A DNA stretch of 64,000 nt. Source: Bacillota bacterium (GTDB lineage Bacteria > Bacillota > Sulfobacillia > JAJZYS01 > JAJZLH01). The position numbers and the translations under genes were made by a program. Shown here one piece after another: positions 3,304 through 59,579 of the stretch. The DNA is taken from NCBI GenBank assembly GCA_021850485.1, contig JAJZLY010000008.1, positions 21,879 to 85,878 of the forward strand, in the 5' to 3' direction. The stretch's first letter is position 1; each line of letters starts with the position of its first letter. Under the pieces are notes generated by a model. The model was not told the origin of the DNA, searched no databases, and saw only the letters and a program-made list of their open reading frames with translations.

Positions 3304-4560
3304 TTAGGGCTGCGACGTCACCTGCGGTTCGGTGCCGATATCCCGGCGGTAGGCGGAACCAGAGAAGTGAATGGATTCGGCCAGCCGATAGGCGGCTGCC
3401 CTGGCCTCAGCGTGCGTAGGGCCAACGCCGACGGCGGTGGCCACACGCCCGCTGCCAGCCAATAAGTGGCGTTCGTCACCGGCCACACCACTCCAAAATA
3501 ACAGTTCTCCCCTGCCCTGGGTGCGAAACGCGATCGGTTGCGGCGGTGCCTGTGCGGTCGGATAGCCATTGGCCACGACCACCACGCCAACGGCCTGATC
3601 CGTAGCCACAGGCAGTGGCCCTGCCTGCTCGAGCCGCCCGGTGGCCGCTGCCATCAGCCACTCCGGCGCATCGGGAGGTAGCAACGGTAGGAGCACTTCG
3701 GTCTCCGGGTCGCCAAAGCGGACATTGTATTCCAACACCCGCGGGCCATCCGGCGTCAGCATGAGTCCTGCATAGAGGACGCCCTGGAAGGGAGATCCCT
3801 GAGCAGTCAGATGGCGGGCCACCGGGGCGATGGCGAGGTCCACCAAGTCGGCTGCCGAAATGGAACTCGCCACTGGGGCCACCGCACCCATACCGCCGGT
3901 GTTCGGGCCGAGGTCCCGATCGAACCGGCGCTTGTAGTCGCGCGCCAGCGGCAAGGCGACCACCGCGTCGCCACAGACTAGGGCATGCACGGAAATTTCT
4001 GGTCCGGTCAGCCGCTCCTCCACGACCAAGCTGCCGAAGGTTCCAAGCCAGCGCCCGCCCGCCTGTCTGGCGTCTTGCAGGTCGCTGGCGATCCACACAC
4101 CTTTGCCCTGAGCCAATCCATCCGCTTTCAGGGCCACATTTCCCTGAAACCGGTCGATCGCCGCCTCTAGCGCCTGACTGCTGGAAACAGTCGCAAACCG
4201 GGCAGTCGGCACCCCGCAGGACGCCATCACCGCCTTGGCGTATGCCTTGGATCCTTCCAGGCGAGCTGCCAAACGGCTGGGGCCCAATACCTGGTGGCCT
4301 CTGGCCCGCAGGTGATCAGCCAGCCCACCGACCAATGGTGCTTCCGGTCCGATCACGATCAGCGAGCAGGCCGCCTGGTCGGCAATCCGGCAAACGGCCT
4401 CCAGATCCGCCAGGTCGACGGGGATCGTTTCGACGCCTGCTTGCCGTATGCCCGGATTGCCTGGCACCACCACCACCCGGTTGATCCCGGACGCCCTTTG
4501 ACACGCCCAGGCCAGCGCATGCTCGCGGCCGCCGCTGCCCACAATCAGGACGCTGAGCAT
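3304..4560 (-). CDS. purD: Phosphoribosylamine--glycine ligase
   Basis: N-terminus MLSVLIVGSGGREHALAWA is the canonical PurD start. 418 aa. Last gene of the contiguous pur operon. Confidence 0.9.
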   Translation of the reverse strand: MLSVLIVGSGGREHALAWACQRASGINRVVVVPGNPGIRQAGVETIPVDLADLEAVCRIADQAACSLIVIGPEAPLVGGLADHLRARGHQVLGPSRLAARLEGSKAYAKAVMASCGVPTARFATVSSSQALEAAIDRFQGNVALKADGLAQGKGVWIASDLQDARQAGGRWLGTFGSLVVEERLTGPEISVHALVCGDAVVALPLARDYKRRFDRDLGPNTGGMGAVAPVASSISAADLVDLAIAPVARHLTAQGSPFQGVLYAGLMLTPDGPRVLEYNVRFGDPETEVLLPLLPPDAPEWLMAAATGRLEQAGPLPVATDQAVGVVVVANGYPTAQAPPQPIAFRTQGRGELLFWSGVAGDERHLLAGSGRVATAVGVGPTHAEARAAAYRLAESIHFSGSAYRRDIGTEPQVTSQP

Positions 4561-4564
4561 CGCC

Positions 4565-6067
4565 TTAATGCCGGAAGTGGCGGATGCCGGTCAGGTACAT
4601 AGTCATGTCCGCCCGCCTCGCCGCTTCGATCACCTCGGCGTCACCTTTGGAGCCGCCAGGCTGGACGATCGCACGCACGCCGGCGGCCTGGGCGGCGGTC
4701 ACCAGGTCGGGAAAGGGGATAAAACCGTCGGATGCAGCCACTGACTCACGAGCCTGCTGCGCCGCCTGTGCAATCGCCTGCTCGGCCGCCCGCACCCGGC
4801 TCACCTGGCCACTTCCGATGCCGACGGTGGCGCCGTCCTTGACCAAGACCACGGCGTTTGACTTGGCCATCCGGGCAACCGACCACGCCAACTCCAAGTC
4901 GGCGAGCGCACTTCCAGTCAAGCCTTGGCCAGCCACCAGCTGCCAGGGCTCAACGGCGAGATCTGGGTCGTCCCAGTCTTCGACCAGCACCTGGCCTCCG
5001 ACCGACCGCACTCGCTTGTGTGGTACTAGCCAGGGTCTCGGCACGACCAGCAAGCGCAGCCCCGCCCGATCGGCCAGCAACTCCTGGGCTTCGATACTGA
5101 TCGAAGGCACCACCAAGACTTCGAGGAAGCGTTTGCGGACGATCTTGGCGGTTTCCAGGTCCAGTTCCTGATTGACTGCTGCCACGCCGCCGTAGGCTGC
5201 CTCCCAATCTGCCTCCAGAGCCCGTTGGTAGGCTGAGGCCAGTGTGCTGCCGCGGGCCACGCCGGCCGGCGTCTGATGCTTGATCACGGCCGCTGCCGGT
5301 TGGGGCAGGCCGGCGACCGTCCACAGGGCGGCCTCGGCATCGAACAGATTGTTCGCCGACACCGGCTTGCCTTCTCGGACCAGCGCCGCCAGCAAGTCTG
5401 GCCCAGACTGCGGCCAGGGACCATAGGCCACCGCCTGCTGGTGCGGATTCTCGCCGTAGCGCAGTTCGCGCCCGGCACTGAGATGCAACGCAAAACTGCG
5501 GCTCGACGATGCCGTCAAGAAGTCACTGACCTCCTGGTCATAGGCAGAGAGCGTGGCAAATACCTTGGCCGCCAGCGCTGGGCCAAGAGCGGTCAGAGTG
5601 CCGTCGTCGATGGCGGCGAGAACCCTCGGGACGTCAGTGACATCGCACAGGGGAGTCACGCGCTGATGATTCTTGGCAGCTGCCCGCAACATGGCCGGAC
5701 CACCGACATCAATCATCTCGATCACGGCCTCAGGCGCAGCCCCCTGATCCCGCACCTCCGAAAATGGGTACAGCGACACCGCCAGCAGGTCAATCGGTTG
5801 GCCGCCCAGTTCCTGGACCACTGGCAGATCCTCCGGTCCACGCCAGAGCAACCCGGCGTGCACCGCCGGGTGCAGGGTCTTGACCCGGCCACCCATCAGC
5901 GAGCTGATCCCGGTCATGTTCTCCAAATGCGACACGGTCACACCTTGGCTCTCCAAGAACACCGCTGTGCCGTGCGTGGCCAGAACCTGCCACTGGCGGT
6001 CGCAAAGGCCCCGGGCCAGGGCCACCCAGCCGTCGCTCTTGTCGTAGGTCGAAATGAGCGCTCGCAT
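4565..6067 (-). CDS. purH: Bifunctional AICAR transformylase / IMP cyclohydrolase
   Basis: 500 aa. N-terminus MRALISTYDKSDG...HGTAVFLESQG is typical of the PurH MGS-like domain. Confidence 0.9.
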   Translation of the reverse strand: MRALISTYDKSDGWVALARGLCDRQWQVLATHGTAVFLESQGVTVSHLENMTGISSLMGGRVKTLHPAVHAGLLWRGPEDLPVVQELGGQPIDLLAVSLYPFSEVRDQGAAPEAVIEMIDVGGPAMLRAAAKNHQRVTPLCDVTDVPRVLAAIDDGTLTALGPALAAKVFATLSAYDQEVSDFLTASSSRSFALHLSAGRELRYGENPHQQAVAYGPWPQSGPDLLAALVREGKPVSANNLFDAEAALWTVAGLPQPAAAVIKHQTPAGVARGSTLASAYQRALEADWEAAYGGVAAVNQELDLETAKIVRKRFLEVLVVPSISIEAQELLADRAGLRLLVVPRPWLVPHKRVRSVGGQVLVEDWDDPDLAVEPWQLVAGQGLTGSALADLELAWSVARMAKSNAVVLVKDGATVGIGSGQVSRVRAAEQAIAQAAQQARESVAASDGFIPFPDLVTAAQAAGVRAIVQPGGSKGDAEVIEAARRADMTMYLTGIRHFRH

Positions 6068-6687
6068 CAGACTTCCTCCTTCGTACCGACGACCACCGTA
6101 CGGCCCCTGACCGTCAGGCGCTCTCCCAACATCCAGCCCAGAGCTGTCTGCACACCCCGCTGCTCGAGCGGGGCGAGCCGCTGACGCAGGGCATGCCGGT
6201 CATCGTCGGGCCAGACCGACACCGCTTCTTGCCAGACGATCGGGCCGCCGTCTATGGCCTCGCTCACCAAATGGACGGTGACCCCAGAGACCCGTACGCC
6301 ATGGGCCAATGCTTGGCCGATCGCATCGAGACCGGGGAAGGCTGGCAACAGGGATGGATGGACGTTGAGGGCTCGCTCGGCGTAGCGGTGCACGAGCCCA
6401 CTGCCCAGCCGGCTCAGATAGCCCGCCAAGAGCAGGTGGCTGATCTGGTGGCTCAGCACTGCCGCCTCTATCTGCACCTCCCGCTCCTCCCAGGGCGTCC
6501 CGGTCCTGTCCACAACGACTGTGGCGATGCCCTGGCCAGCCGCCCAGTCGGCCGCTGGGCACTGCCGGTCAGCCACCACCAAGGCCAGCTCGGCGTTGAG
6601 TTCCCCGGCTGCGATTGCGGCCGCCACCGCCTTCAGGATGCTGCCTTGCCCGGAGCACAACACCGCCAACCGGCCGATCATTGCCAC
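6067..6687 (-). CDS. purN: Phosphoribosylglycinamide formyltransferase
   Basis: 206 aa. Formyl-transferase fold motifs (LAVLCSGQGS, HPSLLPAFPG). Its stop overlaps the purH start. Confidence 0.85.
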   Translation of the reverse strand: MAMIGRLAVLCSGQGSILKAVAAAIAAGELNAELALVVADRQCPAADWAAGQGIATVVVDRTGTPWEEREVQIEAAVLSHQISHLLLAGYLSRLGSGLVHRYAERALNVHPSLLPAFPGLDAIGQALAHGVRVSGVTVHLVSEAIDGGPIVWQEAVSVWPDDDRHALRQRLAPLEQRGVQTALGWMLGERLTVRGRTVVVGTKEEV

Positions 6688-7697
6688 AAGACAGCTCGCG
6701 CGCCGGCTTCGATCCAGCCCACCTCGACCGCTGACTCGCCAGAGGCAACCAGCGTGGCGATCAAGTCTGCCGTCACCTCGGCCGGCGCCACCAGCAAGAA
6801 GCCAATGCCCAAGTTGAACACGTGACGCACCGCCTCTCGACTGAGGCCTGCGGTCTGACGGATGAACTGGCAGAGTTCAGGCTCTGCCCAGCTGGCCTGG
6901 TCGATCACTGCCCGGCAGTGATCCGGCAAGATCCGGACCAGGTTGCCACCCAGGCCGCCTCCGGTCACATGCGCCAGGCCGCTCAACGGCAGGCCCAACA
7001 CGTCGTGAACAGCGCCGACGTAAATGCGCGTTGGCACCAGCAGTTCGGCGCCCAAGGCCGGCAACCCCGGTGCGCGGGGCACCGCCAGGTCCAAGTTGAA
7101 GTCTTTTACAATCTTGCGGATCAGACTGTAGCCGTTGGCGTGAAATCCTTGACTGGCAATCCCCACCACCCGATGTCCGGGCCGGATGGCGTCGCCGGAG
7201 ATGATCCGCTCTGACGCCACCGTCCCCACCGCGAAGCCGGCGAGGTCCAAGACCCCCGGCCGCAGCATATCTGGCAACTCGGCCGTTTCACCGCCGAGCA
7301 GAGCACACCCAGCCTCCCGGCATCCCCTGGCCACACTGGCCACCACCTGACCGGCCTGCACCGGATCCAGCCGATCCACCGCCAAGTAATCCAGTACAAA
7401 CAGCGGCCTCGCTCCCGCCGTGAGCACGTCATTCACGACCATCGCCACCAAATCGACACCGATGTCGTCGAAGGCATTGAGTTGGCTGGCCAAAAGCAGC
7501 TTGCTACCGACACCGTCGGCGCCAGCGACCAACACCTGGCCTGGGCCCCCGCCCAGGGCAAACAGGCCGGCAAAATGGCCGATGCCGCCCAACACTTCCG
7601 GCCGCCAGGCCAAGCCTGCCGCCTGCTGATAGCGGCGAACCGCCTCGTCGCCGGCACCCACGTCGACTCCAGCCTGCCGGTAGACGTCTTCGCTCAT
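6678..7697 (-). CDS. purM: Phosphoribosylformylglycinamidine cyclo-ligase (AIR synthetase)
   Basis: PurM N-terminus MSEDVYRQAGVDVGAGDEAV. ATGA-type overlap with the purF stop at 7694. The ORF-track N-terminal extension to 7775 is rejected. Confidence 0.9.
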   Translation of the reverse strand: MSEDVYRQAGVDVGAGDEAVRRYQQAAGLAWRPEVLGGIGHFAGLFALGGGPGQVLVAGADGVGSKLLLASQLNAFDDIGVDLVAMVVNDVLTAGARPLFVLDYLAVDRLDPVQAGQVVASVARGCREAGCALLGGETAELPDMLRPGVLDLAGFAVGTVASERIISGDAIRPGHRVVGIASQGFHANGYSLIRKIVKDFNLDLAVPRAPGLPALGAELLVPTRIYVGAVHDVLGLPLSGLAHVTGGGLGGNLVRILPDHCRAVIDQASWAEPELCQFIRQTAGLSREAVRHVFNLGIGFLLVAPAEVTADLIATLVASGESAVEVGWIEAGARAVLWQ

Positions 7698-9094
7698 GGA
7701 CCAACCTCGGCCGCCCGCTTGGTGCCAGCCCCGACCACAGACAAGGGGTAGCGGCCGGTAAAGCAGGCCATACAACCGCTCTCACCGATCGCTCGACCGA
7801 CGCCCTCGGCACTGAGAAAGGCCAAGCTGTCAGCTCCCACCCAGCGGGCGATGGTGGCCTCGTCGCGGCCGGTGGCCACCAGTTCCTCGCGGTTGGAGGT
7901 GTCAATGCCGTAGTGGCAGGGGTGGCGGTACGGCGGCGAGGCGATGCGCAGATGAACCTCACTGGCTCCCGCCTGTCTCAGTAGGCGTACCAGATGGGAG
8001 GCGGTGGTACCACGGACCAACGAATCATCGACCAGGGCCACCCGCTTGCCAGCGATCACCTCACCGACCGGCACCAGTTTCAGGCGCAGGGTCAACTCTC
8101 GCTCCCCCTGCGACGGTTGGATGAAGGTGCGGCCGACGTAGCGATTTTTGGCCAGTCCCTGTTCTAGCGGCAATTTTAGGGTCCGGGCAAAGCCCTCGGC
8201 TGCCGGCAAAGACGAGTCGGGCACCCCGACCACAATGTCGGCGTCGACCGGAGCCTCTTTGGCCAATTCCTCTCCCAGCCGGCGCCTGACCATCTGCACG
8301 GTGCGCCCGGCGATCACCGAGTCCGGCCTGGCGAAATAGATGTACTCGAAGCTGCACAGGCTGCGCGGGCCTTCTGGCAAAAACCCGGGCCGACGGTGAA
8401 TTCTGGCCTGGGGGTCGATCGTGACCAGCTCTCCCCCAGCCACGTCCCCGTCCAAAGGCAAGTCCAGCGCGACTAAGGCGCAAGACTCCGAGACAGCGGC
8501 TGCTCTCCCTTCTCGCTGCCCGAACACCAGCGGTCTCAGCGCCAGCGGATCGCGCACCGCCAGCAGTCCGGCCTTAGAAAGCACCACCAAGGCGTAGCCG
8601 CCACGCACTTGCATCAGGGCCTCCTGCAGCGCCTCGACCAGCGTGTCGCGCCGGGAATGGGCGATCAGGTGAGCCACCACTTCAGTGTCGGTGGTGGTCT
8701 GGAAGATGGCTCCTTCCCCTTCCAGACGTCGGCGCAATTCCAGGGCGTTGACCAGGTTCCCGTTGTGGGCTAAGGCGAAGGTGCCATAGCGCGAGCGGAA
8801 GGTGAACGGTTGCGCATTTTCCAGAGAAGGCGAGCCGCTGGTCGAATAGCGCACGTGGCCCACGGCCATGGTGCCGGCAAGCGTCTCTGGCCGGCCGCTC
8901 GGAAAAACCTCAGACACCAGGCCCATGCCCCGTTCCAGCTGCAGCCCTTCGCCGTCGACGCTGGCCACCCCGGCGCTTTCCTGACCGCGGTGCTGAAGGC
9001 TGAACAAGGCTGCCACGGTCAACTGCGGAGCACTCTCTTCCAGATCGGCGATCGCCACGACACCACAGGCCTCGTGGATCTCTCGTCCGTCCAC
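7694..9094 (-). CDS. purF: Amidophosphoribosyltransferase
   Basis: N-terminal nucleophile segment EACGVVAI after a short propeptide. Best start is the GTG at 9094, which has GGAGG 8 nt upstream. The alternative GTG at 9103 overlaps the purL stop as GTGA. The ORF-track extension to 9217 overlaps purL and is rejected. Confidence 0.9.
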   Translation of the reverse strand: MDGREIHEACGVVAIADLEESAPQLTVAALFSLQHRGQESAGVASVDGEGLQLERGMGLVSEVFPSGRPETLAGTMAVGHVRYSTSGSPSLENAQPFTFRSRYGTFALAHNGNLVNALELRRRLEGEGAIFQTTTDTEVVAHLIAHSRRDTLVEALQEALMQVRGGYALVVLSKAGLLAVRDPLALRPLVFGQREGRAAAVSESCALVALDLPLDGDVAGGELVTIDPQARIHRRPGFLPEGPRSLCSFEYIYFARPDSVIAGRTVQMVRRRLGEELAKEAPVDADIVVGVPDSSLPAAEGFARTLKLPLEQGLAKNRYVGRTFIQPSQGERELTLRLKLVPVGEVIAGKRVALVDDSLVRGTTASHLVRLLRQAGASEVHLRIASPPYRHPCHYGIDTSNREELVATGRDEATIARWVGADSLAFLSAEGVGRAIGESGCMACFTGRYPLSVVGAGTKRAAEVGP

Positions 9095-9099
9095 TGCGC

Positions 9100-11268
9100 T
9101 CACCTCCAAAACCGCCGCTGGGCCGCGTCTTTCAGTTGAGAGAGGGGTGCGCGCCACAGAGCTGCCCGCGAGTCCGCACAGGTCATCTGATCTCCCGCCA
9201 GCTGACCGAGGAGGCAAAAGGGCACGCCCCGCCCTGTGGCCCAGTCGCCCGCCTGCTCAGGGTCGGTGGTCACCAGCAGGTAGCGGCTGCCGCCCTCTGC
9301 GCACCAGGCCTCCAGCCCATCGCCCTGGTCATCGGCGGTGTGAAAGTGACCGCCCAGATTCCAGCGGAGAGCTTGTTCCATCACCGCCTGCCAGAGGCCG
9401 CCGTCACCCACATCCTCCACGGCCACGGAAAACGGCAGGGTAAGGAGCTCGATCACGGCCTCCGCCATCTCGGTTTCCAGGGCATAGTCCGGGTCGGGTA
9501 GCGCCCAGGGGTCACCCACGGCCGCTCGACTGCCGACCAGCGCCAGCCAGAGCCGGCCGTTGTCCACCGCCACCCGGTCTGGAATGCCGTCTGCTCGCAA
9601 CCCCACCGTGCCCAGTACGGGCGTCGGTAGGATCGGCCGGGCCCCTTCGCCGTTGTAAAAACTCACATTGCCGCCGATCACCGGAATAGCCATGGCAGCC
9701 GCAGCCTCTGCCAGCCCGCCGACCGTCTCCAAAAAGCTCCAAGCCACCTCCGGCTGATCGGGGTCCCCGAAGTTCAAGCAGTCGGTCAGGGCAATGGCCC
9801 GCGCTCCGGCGGCCGCCAGATTGCGAACCCCTTCCAGCACCAACTCCCGACCAGCCTGGCGCGCCCTGGTGGCGCTCAGCCAGGGCCGGCTGTCCACGCT
9901 CAAAGCGAGCGTGGACAGCGCCTCCGGCACCTTGACCCAGGCAGCACCGGTTCCTGGCAGCCGGGTCGTGCGCAGTCCCACCCGATCGTCATAGCGCTCG
10001 AACACTTGGCGGCGGTCGGCCAAAGCCCAGCCACCGAGGCGGCCTCTGGCCCACTCGGCGAGCGTGGCCGGCTGCGTGCGTCCGGCTACCACCGGGGGCT
10101 TGGCCAGGCTGGACAGGTCGAACAACTGGGCGCCCTCGGCCAAAACTTCGACCGGCAAGTCCGCCACCGTCTGCGCTCCGAGCAGAGCGGTAAACTGCTG
10201 CCTCGCGGTCACCTGGCCAATCGCTGCTGCCGCCAGCGAGAAGTGTTGGGCGACCGCCAGCACCTGGGGCAGATCTTGCGGCCGGATCACCAGCAGCATC
10301 CGCTCTTGGCTCTCGGACAACAAAATCTCCGCTGGCCCCATGGCCATCTCGCGCAAGGGCACCTGGGCCAAGTCCAAGGTCATGCCCCGGTGGCCGCGCT
10401 GCGCCATCTCGGCGGCAGCTGAGGTGATGCCCGCTGCCCCCAGGTCGCCCAGGCCGCTGAGCAGTCCTCGCTCCACAAGCACCTGCACCGCTTCGATCAG
10501 CAGCTTGCCGCGAAAGGGGTCTCCGACTTGTACCTGCGGCCGATCTCCGAGGTCCTGGGAGGTGTCTCTGGATGCGAAACTGGCGCCCGCGATGCCGTCT
10601 CGGCCGGTGGTCGAGCCCAACAACACCACCAGTTCACCGGCGGTGCGAGCGGCGCTTGGCAAGAGATGGCTTTCCGGAAGCAGCCCGACGCACATCGCGT
10701 TGACCAGCGGAGACTGGGCGTACGCCGGATCGACCGTCACCTCGCCGCCCACCGTCGGGACACCGACGGCGTTTGCGTAGTGGGCAACTCCCTCCACCAC
10801 GCCTTGAGCCAAGCGTTCGTCCGCAGCCACACCGGGGGGCCCGAAGAACAAGGCGTCTAAGAACGCGATCGGCCGTGCGCCGGTGGCCAGCACATCGCGC
10901 ATGATCCCGCCCAGCCCTGTGGCGGCGCCTTCCACCGGTTCCACGGCCGACGGGTGGTTGTGAGACTCAATTTTTGCAGCCAGCAGGTAGCCCTGGCCAA
11001 TGTCCACTACACCGGCGTTCTCACCAGGTCCGACCCGCACCCGCGGGCCTCGGCTGGCAAATTGTCTCAGGGCCAGTTTGGAATGCCCGTAGCTGCAGTG
11101 CTCGCTCCACAGGACCGAGACCATGGCAGCCTCGGTGTCGGTCGCGGCCCGACCGAGCGCGCTCTCCAGTCGCCTTCGCACACTCAGCTCAGCTGGTGCC
11201 ACGCGCACCCCTGGCTCAGCCAAGGTGGCTGACCGCCTGCAGGGCCGAGCGAAATAGCCGTCCGCCAT
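9100..11268 (-). CDS. purL: Phosphoribosylformylglycinamidine synthase subunit II
   Basis: 722 aa. WSEHCSYGHSK motif and two AIRS-like domains, as expected for small PurL. Confidence 0.9.
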   Translation of the reverse strand: MADGYFARPCRRSATLAEPGVRVAPAELSVRRRLESALGRAATDTEAAMVSVLWSEHCSYGHSKLALRQFASRGPRVRVGPGENAGVVDIGQGYLLAAKIESHNHPSAVEPVEGAATGLGGIMRDVLATGARPIAFLDALFFGPPGVAADERLAQGVVEGVAHYANAVGVPTVGGEVTVDPAYAQSPLVNAMCVGLLPESHLLPSAARTAGELVVLLGSTTGRDGIAGASFASRDTSQDLGDRPQVQVGDPFRGKLLIEAVQVLVERGLLSGLGDLGAAGITSAAAEMAQRGHRGMTLDLAQVPLREMAMGPAEILLSESQERMLLVIRPQDLPQVLAVAQHFSLAAAAIGQVTARQQFTALLGAQTVADLPVEVLAEGAQLFDLSSLAKPPVVAGRTQPATLAEWARGRLGGWALADRRQVFERYDDRVGLRTTRLPGTGAAWVKVPEALSTLALSVDSRPWLSATRARQAGRELVLEGVRNLAAAGARAIALTDCLNFGDPDQPEVAWSFLETVGGLAEAAAAMAIPVIGGNVSFYNGEGARPILPTPVLGTVGLRADGIPDRVAVDNGRLWLALVGSRAAVGDPWALPDPDYALETEMAEAVIELLTLPFSVAVEDVGDGGLWQAVMEQALRWNLGGHFHTADDQGDGLEAWCAEGGSRYLLVTTDPEQAGDWATGRGVPFCLLGQLAGDQMTCADSRAALWRAPLSQLKDAAQRRFWR

Positions 11269-11911
11269 GGCCGGATCCGAGCGCTGGGTCAGCGTTTCGC
11301 TCCGGATGGGGCATCAGACCGAAGATACGGCCGGTCTGATCAAGCAGGCCTGCCACGTTGCCGATGGCACCGTTGGGATTGGCGGCAGCGCTCACCGCAC
11401 CATCTTGGTTGCAGTAGCGAAGCGCCACCCGACCGTCGCTGTCCGGATGTGACTGGTCCGGCTGGTAGGCACCTTCGGCGTGGGCGATCGGCAAGTCGAT
11501 CACCTCACCGCAAGCAAAGTCAGCCAGAAACGGCGAATCGTTTGCCTCGACCCGCAGCGATACGTCTTGCGACAAGAAGTGCAGGCAGTGATTCCGGGCA
11601 AAGGCACCAGGCAACAGGCCGGCCTCGGTCAGGATTTGAAATCCGTTGCAGATGCCCAGCACCAGCCCACCCCGCCGGTGGTGTTCACGCAGCGCATCCA
11701 GGGCCGGTGAACGGGCAGCGATCGCTCCGGCCCGCAGGTAGTCGCCATAGGAAAAGCCACCCGGCAAAATGGCCAAAGGAGCCTGGTGCGCCGAGAACTC
11801 GGTGTGCCATACCAGTTCTGCCTGCTGGCCAGTGGCTGCCGCAAAGGCAGCGGCCACGTCTTGGTCGCAGTTGGATCCGGGGAACACAATCACCACCGCC
11901 TTACGGCTCAT
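11216..11911 (-). CDS. purQ: Phosphoribosylformylglycinamidine synthase, glutamine amidotransferase subunit
   Basis: 231 aa. N-terminus KAVVIVFPGSNCDQD and a class I GATase catalytic Cys/His. Confidence 0.9.
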   Translation of the reverse strand: MSRKAVVIVFPGSNCDQDVAAAFAAATGQQAELVWHTEFSAHQAPLAILPGGFSYGDYLRAGAIAARSPALDALREHHRRGGLVLGICNGFQILTEAGLLPGAFARNHCLHFLSQDVSLRVEANDSPFLADFACGEVIDLPIAHAEGAYQPDQSHPDSDGRVALRYCNQDGAVSAAANPNGAIGNVAGLLDQTGRIFGLMPHPERNADPALGSGHGGRLFRSALQAVSHLG

Positions 11912-12159
11912 GTGGCGTGGACCGCCAACCGGTAGGTCTCCATCACGGGATTGGCCAGCAGGGCGTTTGCCATCTGCTCGCCCAGCTGCACCGCCTGGTC
12001 GGCACTGGCCGCTTGCACGGTCAGGCTGATCAGGCGGCCAACGCGCACGGCACTGGCCTGGTCAAAGCCCAAGGCGGCCAGCGACGCTTGGACGGCGTCG
12101 CCCTGAGGGTCCAGCATGCCGTCTTTGGGCAAGACCTCCACCACCAGGTGATAGGTCAT
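11908..12159 (-). CDS. purS: Phosphoribosylformylglycinamidine synthase subunit PurS
   Basis: 83-aa protein starting MTYHLVVEVLPKDGMLDPQGDAV, the typical PurS size and sequence. Its stop overlaps the purQ start and its start overlaps the purC stop. Confidence 0.8.
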   Translation of the reverse strand: MTYHLVVEVLPKDGMLDPQGDAVQASLAALGFDQASAVRVGRLISLTVQAASADQAVQLGEQMANALLANPVMETYRLAVHAT

Positions 12160-12863
12160 GCCTGCTGCAGCCGGGCCAGGACCTCCTGGTAGGCCTCCTC
12201 GAGTCCGCCCAGATCCCGGCGGAAGCGATCCTTGTCCATCTTCTCTCCAGTCTTCGTGTCCCACAGGCGGCAGGTGTCGGGGGAAATCTCGTCCCCCAGC
12301 ATGATCTGGCCGTGGCGCCGTCCGAATTCCAGCTTGAAGTCGACCAGGGTGATGCCGTGGCTGGCCAGGGCGTCTTTGAGGATCTCATTGACCCGCCTGG
12401 TCAGGCGACGAATCTCGGCCAGCTCATCAGCGGTTGCCAAGCCGAGGGCCAAGACGTGGTCCTCAGCCAGCATCGGATCTCCCAGGGCGTCGTCCTTCAG
12501 GTAGAACTCGACCACGGCAAACGGGAGCACCTGGCCCTCGGGTCGGCCCAGGCGTCTGGCCAACGACCCCGCCAGAACATTTCTGAGCACAACCTCGATG
12601 CCCATCATGTCCAAGGCATCGACCTCCAAGGTGGTCTCATCGACCTGAGCGCGCAGATGGGTGGGCACCCCGCCGGCGGCGACCAAGCCGAGCAGCAAAG
12701 CCGTGATCTTGGTATTGAGCGCCCCCTTGCCCGAGATGGTTGCCCGCTTCTTGCCGTCCAGGGCAGTGGCGTCATCTTTGAACCGCATCCACAGCCGATC
12801 CGCCGACTCCGTGGTCAGCATCACCTTAGCCTTACCTTCGTAGCGCCTCTCTCCTACCATCAC
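12156..12863 (-). CDS. purC: Phosphoribosylaminoimidazole-succinocarboxamide synthase (SAICAR synthetase)
   Basis: 235 aa with a YEGKAKV N-terminal motif. Confidence 0.9.
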   Translation of the reverse strand: MMVGERRYEGKAKVMLTTESADRLWMRFKDDATALDGKKRATISGKGALNTKITALLLGLVAAGGVPTHLRAQVDETTLEVDALDMMGIEVVLRNVLAGSLARRLGRPEGQVLPFAVVEFYLKDDALGDPMLAEDHVLALGLATADELAEIRRLTRRVNEILKDALASHGITLVDFKLEFGRRHGQIMLGDEISPDTCRLWDTKTGEKMDKDRFRRDLGGLEEAYQEVLARLQQA

Positions 12864-14161
12864 GACACCTCCTCAGTCAGTGCTCGGTCAATGATCTCGG
12901 GTATGCGCTGTAATGACGGAGCCAGGTCGAACAGCTGATCCCACTCGGCGGTGCGCAGCGTCGGTGGCAGTCTTTTGTCTGCCGCCAGCAGCGTCCGAAA
13001 ATCCCCGCCCGCCAGAGCTGAGAACGCCGCTTCTTGCACCAGTTGGTAGGCGGCCTCACGGCTCATCCCGTGGCGGACGAGAGCCAAAAGCACGCGCTGC
13101 GAAGACACCAGGCCGCCGCTAGCCGAAAGATTTTCGGCCATGCGCGCCCGGTCCAGCACCAACCCCTCGATCAGCCAAGCCGCTTCGGCCAGCATGAAGT
13201 CGCTGAGGATGCTGGCGTCAGCCAAGGCCACCCGCTCGGTGGAGGAGTGGGAGATGTCTCGCTCGTGCCAAAGGGCGATGTCCTCCATCCCGGCTTGGGC
13301 GTATGCCCGCACCAATCTGGCCAGACCGCAGATCCGCTCTGAAACCACCGGGTTGCGCTTATGCGGCATCGCAGATGAGCCCTTTTGGCCGACTGCGAAC
13401 GGTTCTTGCACTTCTCGCACTTCCGAGCGCTGCAACAAGCGCACCTCCAGCGCCAGCCGCTCCAAGTTGCCAGCCAAGATGGCGAGCGTGCTGAGGTACT
13501 GGGCGTGGCGGTCTCGGTCCAAGACTTGGGAGCTGACTTGGGCCGGACGAAGGCCCAGCCGGCCAAGCGCTGAGCGCTCCACCTCGGGCGTGACCTCGAG
13601 GTAGGTACCGATCGCCCCAGACAGCTTGCCCACGGCCAGTTCGTGCTGGCAGGCGATAAGCCGCCTGCGGTCTCTGGTGAGCGCCTGATAATAGAGCGCA
13701 AACTTGTGGCCGAGCGTAGTCGGCTCGGCGATCATGCCGTGGGTGCGGCCGGCAATCGGCGTTGTCGCCTCCGCTCTGGCTCTTTTGGATAGCGCCTGGC
13801 GCAGCCTGTCAACGCCCGAGATAAGCTGCTCCGTGGCCGCTTGCAGGGTGAGCATCAAGGCGGTGTCTGTGACGTCAGAAGAGGTCAGCCCGTAGTGGAA
13901 GAAGCGGCTTTCGGCACCGACCTGCTCGCTCACGGCCTGGGTGAAGGCGATCACATCATGGCGGACGGTGGCCTCGATTTCCTCGACCCGGGCCGGATCG
14001 ATGTGCACCCGCTGCGAGATGGTGGCCACCGCCGTAGCGGGGATCACGCCAGCCTCGGCCCAGGCCTCCATCACCGCCAGCTCCACCCGTAGCCAGCTGT
14101 CGTAGCGAGCCTGGTCTTCGAACAGCCCCGCCATCTGGGGTCGGCTGTAGCGCCTGATCAC
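12860..14161 (-). CDS. purB: Adenylosuccinate lyase
   Basis: 433 aa. N-terminus [17 protein letters not shown] and fumarate-lyase family blocks ([11 protein letters not shown]). Confidence 0.9.
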
Positions 14162-14634
14162 GAGGATGCCGACGCCCTTTGCGCTCGCTCCGTCTCGCGC
14201 TGTGCCACAAGAGCCTGGCGGCGCTCAGCCGAGCCGACCGCCAAGATCTGCAGGGCCAGCACGGCGGCGTTTTCGGCCTGGTCCACGCCCACGGTCGCCA
14301 CCGGTACGCCGCGGGGCATCTGCACCGTGCTGAGCAGGGCGTCCCATCCGTTCAGGGCGCTGCCAGACAGCGGCACGCCGATCACCGGCCGCACGCATCT
14401 GGCTGCAACGGCACCGGCCAGATGGGCCGCCATCCCGGCGGCGCAGATCACCACCTGAACCCCGTCTTGATCCAAGTTGGCGATGCGGCTGTCCAGCAGT
14501 TGGGGGTCACGATGGGCAGAGATCACCGCCAGCTCACAGCCAACGCCACTCTTTTCAAGGCGCGCTAGGGCGCCGTCCATCTTGGGCCGGTCGGACACGG
14601 AGCCGACCAGGATCAACACCTCACTCACTCGCCG
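14158..14634 (-). CDS. purE: N5-carboxyaminoimidazole ribonucleotide mutase
   Basis: N-terminus [14 protein letters not shown]...AHR matches PurE class I. Likely GTG start (VSEVL) with GGAGAGG upstream. The ORF-track TTG at 14679 is also possible. Confidence 0.85.
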
Positions 14635-14901
14635 ATCACCTCTCCGCTTCAGCCTACCGCCGGCGATCGGTGAGCGCAAGGAAAAATCCGAACTTTTTGG
14701 CTCGTTTCAGTGTTTATGTTCGGCTTATCCGCCGGCAAAAATTTCAGGCGTCACCTGATGCAGTCGTGGCCAAGAGGTGCCATCATTTGCCTAGGCGTTT
14801 CTTAATGCCACTGACCAGGGTTGCGTCCCCGGGTTGGCGAATTTATCCAACTCTGGGCTCGATCCGGTCTCATCTACCACGGGCCAAAGGAGCAGACAAC
14901 G

Positions 14902-15051
14902 ATGTTCTCCCTGCTGACCAACCATCCGTTCGAGATCTTCGACCTGACCGGCTCGGACATGATCATCGTCATCTTGATGATCATCGTGTTTATTTTGGCG
15001 CTGGTGGTGCCCCACCCGGACAGTCGGCCTTCGAAGCGGGGACAGCCATGA
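14902..15051 (+). CDS. Small single-TM membrane protein (49 aa), first gene of the cytochrome b-like operon
   Basis: ATG at 14902 preceded by AAGGAG (9-nt spacer). Product MFSLLTNHPFEIFDLTGSDMIIVILMIIVFILALVVPHPDSRPSKRGQP. The TGA stop overlaps the ATG of the next gene (ATGA). Confidence 0.45.
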   Translation: MFSLLTNHPFEIFDLTGSDMIIVILMIIVFILALVVPHPDSRPSKRGQP

Positions 15052-15671
15052 ATTGGACGACTTGGATCCGGCGGTGGCTGCTGCGCGAGATCCCGATGGA
15101 GGACCTGCTGCCAGACGAGCTCCCAGCCTACGTGCACTCCTATGTCTATTACTTCGGCGTGCTGACCCTGGCCAGCTTCCTGATGCTGGTGGTCTCGGGC
15201 GTCATCTTGGTCATCTTCGGTCCCCAGTGGTGGCACGTATCTGCCGCTGGTCTGTTCGTGAACAGCATCCACTTTTGGTCCGTACAAGCCTTCTTTTTCT
15301 TCATGGTGTTGCACCTGTGGGCACAGTTCTTCATGGCCGCCTGGCGGGGCGGCCGCGGGCTGAACTGGGTGACCGGCGTTGTGTTGTTTTTGGTCTCGAT
15401 CCTGACTGCCTTCACCGGCTTTCTATCGCAGCAAAACTTCGACTCGCAGTGGATCGCGCTGCAAGGCAAGGACGCCTTCAACGCGCTGGGCGTGGGCGGC
15501 TTTTTCAACATCTTGAACTTCGGTCAGATCTACGGTCTGCACATCGTGGTGCTGCCACTGGTGCTGGCCCTTCTGATCGGCGTCCACCTGTACCTGGTCC
15601 GTTCCAAGGGCGTGGTGACGCCGCTTTTAGATCAGGCGGCGCCGAACAAGGAGGCGCACCACGATGAGTGA
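15048..15671 (+). CDS. Cytochrome b6-like protein (N-terminal di-heme domain of cytochrome b, PetB/QcrB-like)
   Basis: 207 aa, aligning along its length with cytochrome b6. Helix B His pair (IHFWSVQAFFFFMVLH, spacing 14). The RGLNWVTGVVLFLVSILTAFTGF block corresponds to [23 protein letters not shown]. Helix D His pair (LHIVVLPLVLALLIGVH). Phe replaces the heme-ci Cys. Confidence 0.8.
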   Translation: MNWTTWIRRWLLREIPMEDLLPDELPAYVHSYVYYFGVLTLASFLMLVVSGVILVIFGPQWWHVSAAGLFVNSIHFWSVQAFFFFMVLHLWAQFFMAAWRGGRGLNWVTGVVLFLVSILTAFTGFLSQQNFDSQWIALQGKDAFNALGVGGFFNILNFGQIYGLHIVVLPLVLALLIGVHLYLVRSKGVVTPLLDQAAPNKEAHHDE

Positions 15672-16602
15672 GCGTGCCCGCCAGCAGTACCGCGGCTATC
15701 GGATGGTCCAGGCCGACCTGGTCAAGGAGCTGGCGATCGCCTTTGCCGTGATCGCCGGCTTGGTCGTGGTGCTGGCCATCCTCTTTTCCAGCCCGGACCA
15801 GCCCACACTCACCGCCCAGCAGGTGGCCACGGCGCACCCGGCGGAACTCGAGGCCACCGCCATCCACATCCTCGACGGCCAGAATCTGATCGCCGCGTAT
15901 GGCCCGCCGTATAACCATGGCTCCGGATCGGTGCAAAAGATCGGTTTCTTCTCGCCGCAGACTTGGGCCGGCGTCACCTTGCCGCTGGACGCACCCGATG
16001 TGTTTATCCTGTCCCCACTCAGCCGAGTGGCGCCGCTTGATCCGGCGCTTGGCGTAGCCCTCTCGACGTTCCGGGCCGCCTCTCCCAGTCAAAAGGCGAC
16101 CTGGGAGACCAGTTACCAGGGTGCCCTAGACCACGCCCGGGTGGTCAATGGCCAGTTGCTGATGCCGCCGTCTCACAGCGGGCCGCTGCCTGTCATCCTG
16201 GGAGCGTATCTGAACCTGGCCAAAAGCGGTGCTCTTGAGGCCATCATCAATCTGAACGGGCGCACCTATCAGACAGACTTCACGCGGGCGCTGCTCGTCC
16301 TGCAGGGCGCTCCCCTCACCCGGGTGGCGGCGGGCCAGGAGCTTTTAGGCCCTGAGTGGGGCCAGATGAAGGAGCCGGGAAACTACCCTGGTGCCGTCTG
16401 GCTGTGGTTCTACACGCTGCTCTATCAGATCCCGCCGTACGCTACATCGTCGGTCGCCGACCTGCTGGCTGGCGCTACGGTCGGAGTCGTCACCTTGCTG
16501 TTCATGTTCATCCCGTGGATCCCAGGGCTGCGCGATATTCCGCGCAAAGTGAAGATCTATCGGTTGATCTGGAGGGAACACTATGCCCGGCACAAGAAGT
16601 AG
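15664..16602 (+). CDS. Subunit IV-like (cytochrome b C-terminal-like) membrane protein with a ~200-aa extracytoplasmic insertion
   Basis: 312 aa. ATG overlaps the previous stop by 8 nt. It has an N-terminal TM (AIAFAVIAGLVVVLAILF), then a ~200-aa soluble domain, then GPEWGQ (PEWY-like) followed by two TM helices (AVWLWFYTLLYQI; LLAGATVGVVTLLFMFIPWI). No Cys residues. Confidence 0.55.
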   Translation: MSERARQQYRGYRMVQADLVKELAIAFAVIAGLVVVLAILFSSPDQPTLTAQQVATAHPAELEATAIHILDGQNLIAAYGPPYNHGSGSVQKIGFFSPQTWAGVTLPLDAPDVFILSPLSRVAPLDPALGVALSTFRAASPSQKATWETSYQGALDHARVVNGQLLMPPSHSGPLPVILGAYLNLAKSGALEAIINLNGRTYQTDFTRALLVLQGAPLTRVAAGQELLGPEWGQMKEPGNYPGAVWLWFYTLLYQIPPYATSSVADLLAGATVGVVTLLFMFIPWIPGLRDIPRKVKIYRLIWREHYARHKK

Positions 16603-16876
16603 GCGCACCCTGCCGGTGCCGGCCAGACCCCGTCTGTACCTGCTCCTTCCCGCCCTGGTGGCAGGTGTGGTTGGTACGTCTTTGCTCTATAACGGCGGCG
16701 TATCCGCCAATCTTGGCGATCTGGCGGCTGGGGTGCCTTTGTTCGGACTAGGTCTGTGGGGGGCGGGTTGGCCCTTCGTTCAGGCCATGGCCCTGACCAA
16801 GGCTGCCGGCCAGCGCCGCAGGAGACTCGCTGCTGGGCGACACCAGCCGGGTCCATCAGGTCCTGGTGGGGTCTGA
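16583..16876 (+). CDS. Small 2-TM membrane protein (97 aa) with Arg-rich termini
   Basis: ATG at 16583 with a strong GGAGGG ribosome binding site 6 nt upstream. Overlaps the upstream gene by 20 nt. Two hydrophobic helices. Confidence 0.4.
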   Translation: MPGTRSRRTLPVPARPRLYLLLPALVAGVVGTSLLYNGGVSANLGDLAAGVPLFGLGLWGAGWPFVQAMALTKAAGQRRRRLAAGRHQPGPSGPGGV

Positions 16877-42136: not shown

Positions 42137-42775
42137 CTAGCCCGAGATGGCAGGAGATCCGCTCGGCAGCACCTTGAGGGTGATCCACATTCCGGCCGTT
42201 TCGTGGCCAGCGATCAGACAGGCGATCGCATACGTCCCGGCTGCTCCCGCCTTCCAACTAAAGCTGGCGCTGCTGCCGGGTGGCGTGCCGATGCCGCTGG
42301 TTGCGTTGGCGGTGGCGGCCGAGGCCGTGACCGGGGTCAGGGAGGTGGAGTTCGCCACCACCGCCGCCGAGTGAGGCAAAACGCCCTGATTTTGGAGCTT
42401 GACCGTCAGCGTCCAGCCAGTGGGCACGCTGACCACCATCTGTCCGTTCAGGGTGCCATCAAAATTGAACGGGGACGGTGAACTCTTCAGGCCAGCGATC
42501 AGCGAAAGGGTGACCGTCTTACTGGCCGTCGAAACGGTCAGGTACTTGGCCAAGGCCGAGCTGGCAGTTGGCGTCCCGGAACTGCCGCTGCCGCCGCTGG
42601 AAGTCGACGACGAAGCGGCCGGTGTGGACGTGGCCGGACTCGTAGCAGGGGTGGAGCTGGAGGAGGGCGGTGCTGGCGGGTAATACTGCTGACCGACCTC
42701 ATAGGTCGCTGCCGAGCCACAGCCGGCGACCACCGTCAAGGCGGCGAGCAGCGGGATGACAAGCCGAAGCCGCAT
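42137..42775 (-). CDS. Blue-copper (cupredoxin) lipoprotein
   Basis: Signal peptide with lipobox VAGC. Ser/Thr/Pro-rich linker. C-terminal cupredoxin domain with His (LPHSAAV) and a Cys-x4-His-x4-Met type-1 copper loop (YAIACLIAGHETAGMW). Confidence 0.7.
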   Translation of the reverse strand: MRLRLVIPLLAALTVVAGCGSAATYEVGQQYYPPAPPSSSSTPATSPATSTPAASSSTSSGGSGSSGTPTASSALAKYLTVSTASKTVTLSLIAGLKSSPSPFNFDGTLNGQMVVSVPTGWTLTVKLQNQGVLPHSAAVVANSTSLTPVTASAATANATSGIGTPPGSSASFSWKAGAAGTYAIACLIAGHETAGMWITLKVLPSGSPAISG

Positions 42776-57537: not shown

Positions 57538-59346
57538 TTATTCCACGGTCACCGATTTGGCAAGATTGCGCGGCTTGTCGATGTCTGTCCCTCGCGCTAC
57601 CGCCACGTGATAGGCCAAAAGCTGCAATGGCAGCGCTGCCAGGACGGGGGCTAGCTCATCGCGGCAGGCGGGCAGGGTGAACACCTGGTCGAGTTCGTCA
57701 TGCTGGCTAAGATCGTAACTGGTGATGCCATAGGTCCAGCCGCCCCGGGCCTTGACCTCGGCCAGATTGGACAGGGTTTTGTCCAGCAAGTCCTTTTGGG
57801 TGAGCAGCGCCACCACCGGTACGCCCTGCTCGATCAGGGCCAAGGTGCCGTGCTTTAGCTCGCCGGCGGCCAAGGCCTCGGCGTGCAGATAGGAGATTTC
57901 CTTGAGTTTGAGCTGACCCTCCATCGCCACCGCATAGTCGGTGCCGCGACCCAGGTAGAAGACGTCTTTGGCCACGGTCAGCCGTTTGGCGACGGAGCTG
58001 ACCTCTGCGTCCTTTTGCAAGATCAGTTCGGCTTTTTCCGGCAGCGCCCACAGCTCCCTGGCCCAGTCCGCCTCCTGAGCGGCAGTCAACAGCCCGGTGC
58101 GCTTGGCGTACGCCAGCACCAGGAAGGTGAGGGCCAGGATCTGGGTGGTGTAGGCCTTCGAGGAGGCGACGGCAATCTCTGGTCCAGCCAGGGTCGGCAC
58201 ATTGAGTTCGGCCTCACGGCTGATCGAACTTCCGATCACGTTGGTGATGGCGATCATCTTGGCACCCATCGCTTTGGCCCGGCGCATCGCCGACAGCGTG
58301 TCCAGTGTCTCGCCGGACTGCGAGACGGCAATCACCGTGTCAGTGGGTCCCAGTTTCAGGTGCCGGTAGCGAAACTCGCTGGCCAACTCGGCTTCAGCGG
58401 GAATGCCCAGGATGTCCTCGGCCAGCCGGCGGCCAACCAAGCAGGCATGATAGCTGGTACCACAGGCCACGAACCACAGCTTGCGGGGCAAGGGCCCTGG
58501 GTCTACCTCCAAGGCGATCCGGCTGAGATCTTCACTGAGCCGGCCGGCCATGGTTTGGCGCAGCGCCTTTGGCTGCTCTTGAATCTCCTTGATCATGAAG
58601 TGCGGATGGCCTCCGCGCTCCGCCTCTTCCAGGTTCCAGGACACCGCCAAGACCGGCCGCGTCACTTCGCCCTGGGGCCCATAGATGTGGGCGCCTTGGG
58701 CGGTGATCACGGCCACCTCGCCGTCTTCCACCACCACCACCTTGCGGGTTCGGCTGATCAAGGCTGGGATGTCCGAGGCCAGCATGTTTTCGCCCTCGCC
58801 CAAGCCCAGCAGCAACGGTGAGTCCTGGCGGGCAGCGCCGACCGCTCCCGGGTCCTGGGTGCGCACCACGGCCAGGGCGTAGGTACCGCGCAACCGGCTG
58901 ATGACCGCCTGCAGGGCGTCTTTGAAGGGCAGCTCGGCGTACTCTTCGAGCAGGTGGACAGCCACCTCGGAGTCGGTTTCGGAGCGAAAAACGTGTCCCT
59001 TGGCTTGCAGTTCTTGGCGCAACGCCCCGTGGTTCTCGATAATTCCGTTGTGGGCGACCGCCACGTCGCCGTGACAACCCAGATGGGGATGGGCATTTTG
59101 CTCGCTCGGCCGGCCATGCGTTGCCCATCTGGTGTGCCCCACCCCAACCTTACCGGCCAGCGGGTGGTCGGCCAGGGCGGCTTCCAGTTCAGCGATGCGG
59201 CCGACCGTCTTGACGAAGCCGAGCGCCCCTTGATCCAACACGGCGAGCCCTGCAGAGTCGTACCCTCGGTACTCCAACCGATTCAGTCCGGCCAGCAAAA
59301 ATGGCATGGCCGTATCGTTTCCGGCGTATCCCACAATGCCACACAT
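57538..59346 (-). CDS. glmS: Glutamine--fructose-6-phosphate aminotransferase
   Basis: Start MCGIVGYAG (Ntn Cys), two SIS domains and a C-terminal ...VTVE. The ORF-track N-terminal extension is rejected. Confidence 0.92.
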   Translation of the reverse strand: MCGIVGYAGNDTAMPFLLAGLNRLEYRGYDSAGLAVLDQGALGFVKTVGRIAELEAALADHPLAGKVGVGHTRWATHGRPSEQNAHPHLGCHGDVAVAHNGIIENHGALRQELQAKGHVFRSETDSEVAVHLLEEYAELPFKDALQAVISRLRGTYALAVVRTQDPGAVGAARQDSPLLLGLGEGENMLASDIPALISRTRKVVVVEDGEVAVITAQGAHIYGPQGEVTRPVLAVSWNLEEAERGGHPHFMIKEIQEQPKALRQTMAGRLSEDLSRIALEVDPGPLPRKLWFVACGTSYHACLVGRRLAEDILGIPAEAELASEFRYRHLKLGPTDTVIAVSQSGETLDTLSAMRRAKAMGAKMIAITNVIGSSISREAELNVPTLAGPEIAVASSKAYTTQILALTFLVLAYAKRTGLLTAAQEADWARELWALPEKAELILQKDAEVSSVAKRLTVAKDVFYLGRGTDYAVAMEGQLKLKEISYLHAEALAAGELKHGTLALIEQGVPVVALLTQKDLLDKTLSNLAEVKARGGWTYGITSYDLSQHDELDQVFTLPACRDELAPVLAALPLQLLAYHVAVARGTDIDKPRNLAKSVTVE

Positions 59347-59394
59347 ATGCACTTGTTCCCTTCTATGACACAGATGACAGATATGAGGTGGCAA

Positions 59395-59560
59395 CCTGCA
59401 CACGCAGGTCGCCTGGGCGGTGATGTCCAGCCTGTCCCGTCCGTCGCCGGCCGGATTTCTGGGCACCTATCGGAACCGCCATACCGCGGGGTATCCGCCG
59501 AATTCTTCGATAAACCCCGACCTCGTCCACTCGCTCGGCGAGTGCAGGCGCTTGAAAGAA
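59395..59560 (-). ncRNA. glmS ribozyme: glmS ribozyme (GlcN6P-responsive self-cleaving riboswitch) in the glmS 5' UTR
   Basis: The minus-strand transcript reads ...CAAGCGCC-UGCACUCGCCGAGCGAGUG-GACGAGGUCGGGGUUUAUCGAAGAAUUCGGCGGAUACCCCGCGG.... This matches the glmS ribozyme core consensus A^GCGCC...GACGAGGAUGGAGGUUAUCGAAUUUUCGGCGGAUGCCUCCCGG. It sits immediately upstream of the glmS ATG. Confidence 0.85.
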
Positions 59561-59579
59561 GGATGATCGGACTTGGCTC

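Follow-up and report, generated by a model that had tools for sequence, protein, structure and literature searches.

Cytochrome bc complexes are defined by the pairing of a cytochrome b with a Rieske iron-sulfur protein and by a bifurcated Q-cycle. In the b6f complex (PetB/PetD) and in the Bacillus-type QcrB/QcrC pair, cytochrome b is split over two consecutive genes. The actinobacterial QcrB of the bcc-aa3 type has eight helices, keeps a P(D/E)WY-type motif, and shares its operon with the QcrA Rieske protein and the diheme cytochrome c QcrC. Rieske-less homologues of cytochrome b are also found, among them the Geobacter Cbc-type quinol dehydrogenases, Sulfolobus SoxC, and ExtP (an NCBIfam family of a selenite/tellurite reduction operon). 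Here we describe a four-gene operon on the forward strand of a 64,000-nucleotide stretch of a Bacillota genome (contig JAJZLY010000008.1; the whole stretch is referred to below as the window). The operon has the gene order of the split systems and, like the Rieske-less homologues, no linked Rieske gene; unlike those systems, which have an obvious linked redox partner (an oxidase or multiheme cytochromes c), it has none. We consider it on balance probable that the operon encodes a diheme cytochrome b complex of the bc superfamily that is linked to quinone and works without a Rieske protein.

Genes of this kind have been seen before in Sulfobacillus. A petB-like diheme cytochrome b was reported there in an operon lacking a cytochrome c or iron-sulfur protein, and such operons were judged ‘not canonical bc complexes’ (Justice et al. 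2014, PMC4378227). The complete genome of S. thermotolerans was likewise found to encode cytochrome b subunits only and no bc1 complex, as were S. acidophilus and S. thermosulfidooxidans (Panyushkina et al. 2019, PMC6803676). The petB-like cytochrome b of these reports is very probably the same gene as the cytochrome b in our window. These two genome papers were all that we found in the literature on a characterised Rieske-less cytochrome b of this type; they give it one or two sentences and are silent on the 312-amino acid partner, on the small subunits and fusions, and on how the module is spread across Terrabacteria. The basic observation of an orphan cytochrome b is therefore already in print, and what is new here is its partners, their fusions and the breadth of the family.

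The operon begins with a gene for a 49-amino acid peptide (14902–15051), preceded by an AAGGAG ribosome-binding site, whose stop codon overlaps the start of the cytochrome b gene (ATGA). The cytochrome b gene (15048–15671, 207 amino acids) overlaps by 8 nt the gene for the 312-amino acid partner subunit (15664–16602, ribosome-binding site AAGGAGG), and this in turn overlaps by 20 nt the gene for a 97-amino acid membrane protein (16583–16876, ribosome-binding site GGAGGGA). The translational coupling noted in the initial annotation was thus reproduced, both in the open reading frames and at each junction. The same four genes were called by the ENA and NCBI pipelines on two contigs encoding an identical cytochrome b, one of which belongs to assembly GCA_027344945.1. 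None of the four proteins contains a cysteine. In relatives whose proteins are 60–68% identical the four-gene order is kept while the flanking genes are wholly different, which indicates that the operon is autonomous.

The 207-amino acid protein is cytochrome b6-like. It has four helices and scores above the gathering cut-offs of PF13631 (50.3 bits against 27, E = 3.5e-13) and PF00033 (32.1 bits against 27.2, E = 1.3e-7). Alignment with cytochrome b6 chains from the PDB confirmed an end-to-end correspondence, with residues 11–193 matching residues 12–215 of the Chlamydomonas protein (1q90_B; HMMER, E = 1.5e-11). H75 and H89 in helix B and H165 and H180 in helix D occupy the heme-ligand positions of b6, and all four are at least 95% conserved among 126 homologues; binding of two hemes is predicted on this basis. 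The spacings H-x13-H in helix B and H-x14-H in helix D are those of b6 and split cytochromes b, and the end of helix D shares with b6 the signature H-x4-R-x-x-G-V-x-x-P. The CxGG cysteine associated with heme ci/cn in b6 is absent, and with no cysteine in the protein there can be no covalent heme ci. The loss of this residue had been recognised from the start, and only the replacement was misassigned: Cys35 of b6 aligns with Tyr35 (Leu in most of the family), and the Phe named earlier is the next residue, Phe36.

Beyond this shared core the protein departs from every curated cytochrome b family in NCBIfam, scoring below the cut-off of each. Its best match was ExtP (NF040969, 68.2 bits against a cut-off of 290, E = 8.6e-19), and the scores for b6 (NF002990), actinobacterial QcrB (NF050120) and SoxC (NF041076) were 54.9, 36.5 and 30.7 bits against cut-offs of 325, 500 and 740. 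Similarity to actinobacterial QcrB is confined to the N-terminal bundle (E ~1e-8). The connection between helices A and B is very short in this family, and in place of the AB loop of b6f and QcrB/QcrC systems it carries an invariant GPxWWH at the outer end of helix A (residues 58–63, window 15219–15236). This motif provides a fifth conserved histidine that is absent from canonical cytochromes b. The cd region is also strongly conserved (TG.LSQ.N.D.QW...KDA.N..G.G.FF...NFGQ.Y), and invariant residues lie on both membrane faces, in the cytochrome b as well as in the 312-type subunit. Across phyla the cytochrome b retains 50–67% identity.

The 312-amino acid protein has two transmembrane helices, at approximately residues 25–41 and 267–283, as judged by hydropathy and by AlphaFold 2 models. 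Between them, after the helix-E-like first helix, lies a mostly helical extracytoplasmic domain of ~200 residues, which corresponds to the cysteine-free insertion described in the initial annotation. A short amphipathic helix (residues 244–256) links this domain to the second transmembrane helix, and a basic cytoplasmic helix forms the C-terminus. The two further transmembrane helices previously proposed to follow the first thus reduce to one, plus the amphipathic helix. The family shares an invariant block, W232-G...E237...P242-G-x-x-W-L-W-x-Y-T-x-x-Y-Q-x-P-P, and has no conserved His, Cys or Met, so nothing in the extracytoplasmic domain stands out as a cofactor ligand. The PEWG sequence (P230-E-W-G) that had been taken for an altered Qo motif does not hold up as such, since only its W232 and G233 are conserved in the family and its P and E vary.

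No family in Pfam (E ≤ 1) or NCBIfam matched the 312-amino acid protein. A search of PDB sequences with a 25-sequence family profile (E ≤ 10) returned only a chance match (E = 2.1). The closest named relative is a protein from a Sulfobacillus sp. metagenome-assembled genome (MAG), at 96% identity. Homologues are nonetheless abundant: we counted at least 1668 in 90% clusters, and a profile search of 1.84 billion representatives gave 1109 matching clusters at 50% identity. The best 150 of these 1109 matches consisted solely of the 312-type family, its fragments and its fusions. At least 584 GTDB species representatives encode the protein. Neutrophilic soil members of the Actinomycetota, Dormibacterota and Chloroflexota make up most of the hosts, among them Solirubrobacterales, Acidimicrobiales, Gaiellaceae and Ktedonobacterales, and the hosts within Bacillota include Alicyclobacillus, Ferroacidibacillus, Sulfobacillus and Thermaerobacter.

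To count linkage and neighbours we fetched 80 related loci from several phyla. A cytochrome b homologue lies directly upstream of the 312-type gene in all 80, and in 10 of them the two form a single open reading frame. Double fusions of this kind are present in the databases (P0088, P0097, P0107 and P0242), and one protein, P0243, is a natural in-frame triple fusion of the small peptide, the cytochrome b and the 312-type protein. We folded the natural fusion P0097 with AlphaFold 2 from a 144-row alignment (predicted local distance difference test score 81, predicted template modelling score 0.74). The model superposes on long cytochromes b over 250–274 residues, compared with 169 for b6, and in a Foldseek search actinobacterial QcrB (E = 2e-6, ~500 alignment columns) came out higher than b6 (E = 1e-3). 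From this ranking and the longer superposition it appears that ~80–100 residues of the 312-type part match the C-terminal half of cytochrome b, with packing like that of helices E and F predicted. By genomic position the 312-type protein thus stands in for subunit IV, or for the C-terminal portion of cytochrome b, and the model is in keeping with this. As in b6f and QcrB/QcrC, the second protein of the pair is predicted to supply helix-E-like, amphipathic and helix-F-like helices.

The likeness to subunit IV has clear bounds. Where subunit IV has three transmembrane helices (E, F and G), the window protein has two; it carries the ~200-residue outer domain, gave no PF00032 match in Pfam at E ≤ 1, and belongs to a family in which the P-E/D-W-Y (Qo) motif is not present at the start of the ef helix. 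By eye, P242-G-A-V-W-L-W-F-Y-T-L-L-Y-Q-I-P aligns gaplessly with the canonical P-E-W-Y-...-I-P, and P242-G-[AQ]-x keeps the 14-residue spacing to the I-P turn, which is suggestive of PG[AQ]x as the likelier equivalent of PEWY. The C-terminal domains of genuine actinobacterial QcrB proteins also escape hidden Markov model (HMM) and Pfam detection (Kao and Hunte, PMC4122944), so homology may exist despite the missing PF00032 match. The earlier description of the protein as subunit-IV-like therefore survives in its linkage, its fusions and its predicted fold, including the structural likeness to the C-terminal helices of cytochrome b, but does not hold for the three-helix topology or the PEWG motif, and sequence homology could not be demonstrated.

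The module also includes small membrane proteins, neither of which matched a family in Pfam or NCBIfam. The 49-amino acid peptide has one transmembrane helix (residues 20–36), as first described, and an iterated HMM search found a homologue directly 5′ of the cytochrome b gene in 79 of the 80 loci; in the remaining locus a contig end cuts it off. These peptides are 40–50 amino acids long and share the motif F-x-x-S-x-x-N/D...VF..A...PFP. The basic C-terminus, together with the link to the cytoplasmic N-terminus of cytochrome b in P0243, predicts that the peptide lies N-out, C-in. This obligatory N-terminal single-helix peptide is a further difference from b6f and QcrB/QcrC. The 97-amino acid protein apparently forms two helices followed by a basic tail. 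Positional counterparts of 74–92 amino acids, with two transmembrane helices and a gene overlapping the end of the 312-type gene, were found at nine loci (L003, L004, L005, L009, L012, L015, L017, L083 and L085), all in Bacillota, and none was found at the Actinomycetota, Dormibacterota or Chloroflexota loci. BLAST similarity to the window protein is weak, and homology of these counterparts is thus deduced from position and architecture. The 97-amino acid protein, with its ribosome-binding site and two helices, is accordingly an addition seen in Bacillota, and the part of the four-gene arrangement that recurs throughout the 80 loci is a core of three genes.

We then considered the redox partners of the module. 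No open reading frame of at least 80 amino acids in the window contains a Rieske CxH...CxxH motif. CxxCH is absent from the operon and occurs as a single match in three window reading frames, one of them glmS and the other two judged to be spurious overlapping frames. These scans uphold the initial statement that neither the operon nor the window encodes a Rieske protein or a cytochrome c. Across the related loci, 78 of 80 have no Rieske or cytochrome c gene linked to the module. In the other two, a Rieske-motif protein (CTHxGC...CPCH) lies within 8 kb, at +1.4 and +5.7 kb (L023:10310–11581 and L002:14654–15595); because the distances differ, these proteins are probably unrelated to the module. 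The 80 loci have no conserved CxxCH neighbour. BLAST clustering of all their open reading frames revealed no conserved neighbour beyond the module itself, and in Pfam counts over the 150 nearest neighbours no family exceeded 4% and no conserved redox partner emerged. Compared with b6f and QcrB/QcrC systems, the module therefore lacks the CxGG cysteine, heme ci/cn, and the Rieske and cytochrome f/c genes. This supports the alternative raised in the initial annotation, a non-canonical cytochrome b complex, which the linkage, the heme ligands and the lack of a linked Rieske protein or cytochrome c bear out: the module is best described as a Rieske-less, heme-c-less split cytochrome b.

If so, the core of the complex would be the b6-like four-helix protein, in which two non-covalent b hemes are predicted, each close to one face of the membrane. 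The 312-amino acid protein would contribute the equivalents of helix E, helix F and the ef helix, which normally complete both quinone pockets, and its cofactor-less outer domain would occupy the place of the Rieske head and of the long AB and ef loops. The single-helix peptide, joined in Bacillota by the two-helix protein, would pack on this core. Electrons would pass between the complex and the menaquinone pool and would cross the membrane by way of hemes bL and bH. The outer pocket may be built from the cd region, the additional histidine of GPxWWH, the loops YGPPYN and QWG..E, and, in place of PEWY, the helix with PG[AQ]x. Without a Rieske cluster, no bifurcated Q-cycle would be possible at the outer site. 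This site may instead work by sequential one-electron steps in a Qi-type fashion, or it may exchange electrons with an acceptor or donor encoded outside the operon, the putative physiological partner. We regard the module as a variant of the cytochrome b superfamily that is widespread yet uncharacterised; a new category is not demonstrated. A bolder proposal, which we offer only tentatively, is that it represents a widespread and hitherto unrecognised class of bioenergetic membrane complexes of monoderm Terrabacteria in which a cofactor-less cap has replaced the Rieske/cytochrome c arm, the GPxWWH histidine sits in the outer quinone site, and the chemistry is either non-bifurcating quinone conversion on both faces or extracellular electron delivery, maybe under hypoxia or dormancy control in Actinomycetota and Dormibacterota.

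Several observations weigh against a Rieske-independent complex. If quinone sites are present at both faces, a diheme cytochrome b performs no net reaction alone, so a partner must exist, and a Rieske gene may lie elsewhere in the host MAG, outside the window searched. Within Sulfobacillus, a bc complex is present in the divergent lineage AMDSBA4. For every member of the family the function is predicted from sequences and modelled structures, and the model that gives the structural support is that of a homologue sharing 48% identity with the window protein. Sequence homology of the 312-amino acid protein to subunit IV is not statistically demonstrable. When its C-terminal 90 residues were compared by hhalign with 4 and then 120 canonical PF00032 fragments, helix F alone was matched, and not significantly (P = 0.002–0.009, probability 5–15%). 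In a gapless profile scan of the PEWY-to-IP segment, the registration described above ranked second of 295 offsets, tied with another (shuffle p ~0.04). Finally, a bridge to canonical cytochrome b may exist among the profile matches below the best 150 of the 1109.

The neighbourhoods of the module differ between phyla. In several Actinomycetota and Dormibacterota genomes it is adjoined by genes for DosS/DosT-like kinases (GAF-GAF-HisKA_3-HATPase) and DosR-like regulators (REC+GerE), at L021:5302–7002, L039:5055–6938, L010:10544–12238, L029:1597–2286, L016:9433–10122, L032:9017–9964 and L066:6392–7057. REC+GerE, GAF-GAF-HisKA_3, universal stress and CBS proteins are the commonest close neighbours in these two phyla, mostly within 3–4 kb, and the module may there be under hypoxia or dormancy control. 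In Dormibacterota, ferric-reductase-like transmembrane heme proteins (PF01794) recur 2.5–5 kb downstream (L051:13869–14888, and similarly in L035, L054 and L056).

The regulator and stress-protein neighbours bear on the first of three other explanations, a role in stress or redox homeostasis, in which the complex would balance the menaquinone pool or the membrane potential during hypoxia or dormancy, or would act as an extracellular superoxide:quinone oxidoreductase like E. coli CybB. The DosS/DosR-type, universal stress and CBS genes give it a weak lead. However, each such family makes up only ~3–4% of nearest neighbours, a figure that has no genome-wide background for comparison; none of these regulator or stress families occurs close to the module either in the window or among the Bacillota loci, and the match to 5oc0 reflects a generic four-helix heme bundle. 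We therefore think this role rather unlikely.

The window also encodes a blue copper protein with a sulfocyanin domain (42137–42775, − strand; Pfam SoxE, 1.6e-22), its gene flanked by genes for an amino-acid permease and a DPP-IV-type peptidase. Sulfocyanin is typical of acidophilic iron oxidisers. This protein had been put forward as the electron-exit partner of the module; we rejected it, as it lies 25 kb away and no cupredoxin is linked to the module in the 80 related loci.

A broader form of the same idea is that the complex is a quinol-oxidising entry to a terminal oxidase or to sulfocyanin, passing electrons directly from heme bL in the manner of SoxC in Sulfolobus SoxABCD. The presence of sulfocyanin in the window is consistent with this, as are the weak match to SoxC (E = 1.4e-7) and the fact that Sulfobacillus has cytochrome c oxidases and no bc complex to feed them, which leaves a gap for a quinol dehydrogenase. 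Yet the SoxC score falls far below its cut-off, a linked oxidase or cupredoxin gene occurs in none of the 80 loci, and the outer domain has no conserved metal or heme ligand. The hosts are mostly the neutrophilic soil phyla named above, the module lies mostly in lineages and neighbourhoods without a sulfocyanin gene, and Actinomycetota typically have a canonical QcrCAB. Taken together this makes such an entry point improbable.

Least probable, and in our view a long shot, is that the genes encode the cytochrome b/subunit IV pair of an ordinary bc complex recruiting in trans a Rieske protein and a c-type cytochrome encoded elsewhere: Rieske genes do not always adjoin cytochrome b genes (Dibrova et al. 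2017, PMC5600118), the missing PF00032 match is not decisive given the undetected C-termini of genuine QcrB (PMC4122944), and a Rieske-motif protein is encoded within 6 kb in two of the 80 loci, but the other 78 have none, complete Sulfobacillus genomes are reported to hold no part of a bc complex bar cytochrome b (PMC4378227, PMC6803676), PEWY is lost family-wide and an insertion of ~200 residues immediately precedes the ef element, the docking place of the Rieske head, and a tight GPxWWH hairpin replaces the long AB loop.

On the 5′ side of the operon in the window, on the opposite strand, a compact purine-biosynthesis operon (purE, purB, purC, purS, purQ, purL, purF, purM, purN and purH; ~4500–14679, − strand) diverges from it across an intergenic region of ~220 nt; the purine genes were assigned by Pfam on a contig encoding the identical cytochrome b. 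On the 3′ side are genes for an aldo-keto reductase, a short-chain dehydrogenase and a dienelactone hydrolase. None of the purine or downstream genes travels with the module in relatives. Farther along, a glmS ribozyme/riboswitch (Rfam RF00234, 82.3 bits; 59412–59563, − strand) lies upstream of glmS (57538–59466; GATase and SIS domains). The longest glmS reading frame starts within the ribozyme (59466), so translation must in fact begin further downstream.

A module that keeps the diheme core and both membrane-face surfaces while dispensing with the Rieske protein and heme c would show what cytochrome b is capable of alone, and it bears on models that derive bc complexes from simpler membrane dehydrogenases. 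The 312-amino acid subunit and the small peptide could each serve to define a new protein family. For Sulfobacillus, the complex could fill the place of the ‘missing complex III’, and it may perhaps provide a hypoxia-linked route for electrons in Solirubrobacterales, Acidimicrobiia, Dormibacterota, Ktedonobacteria and other abundant soil lineages.

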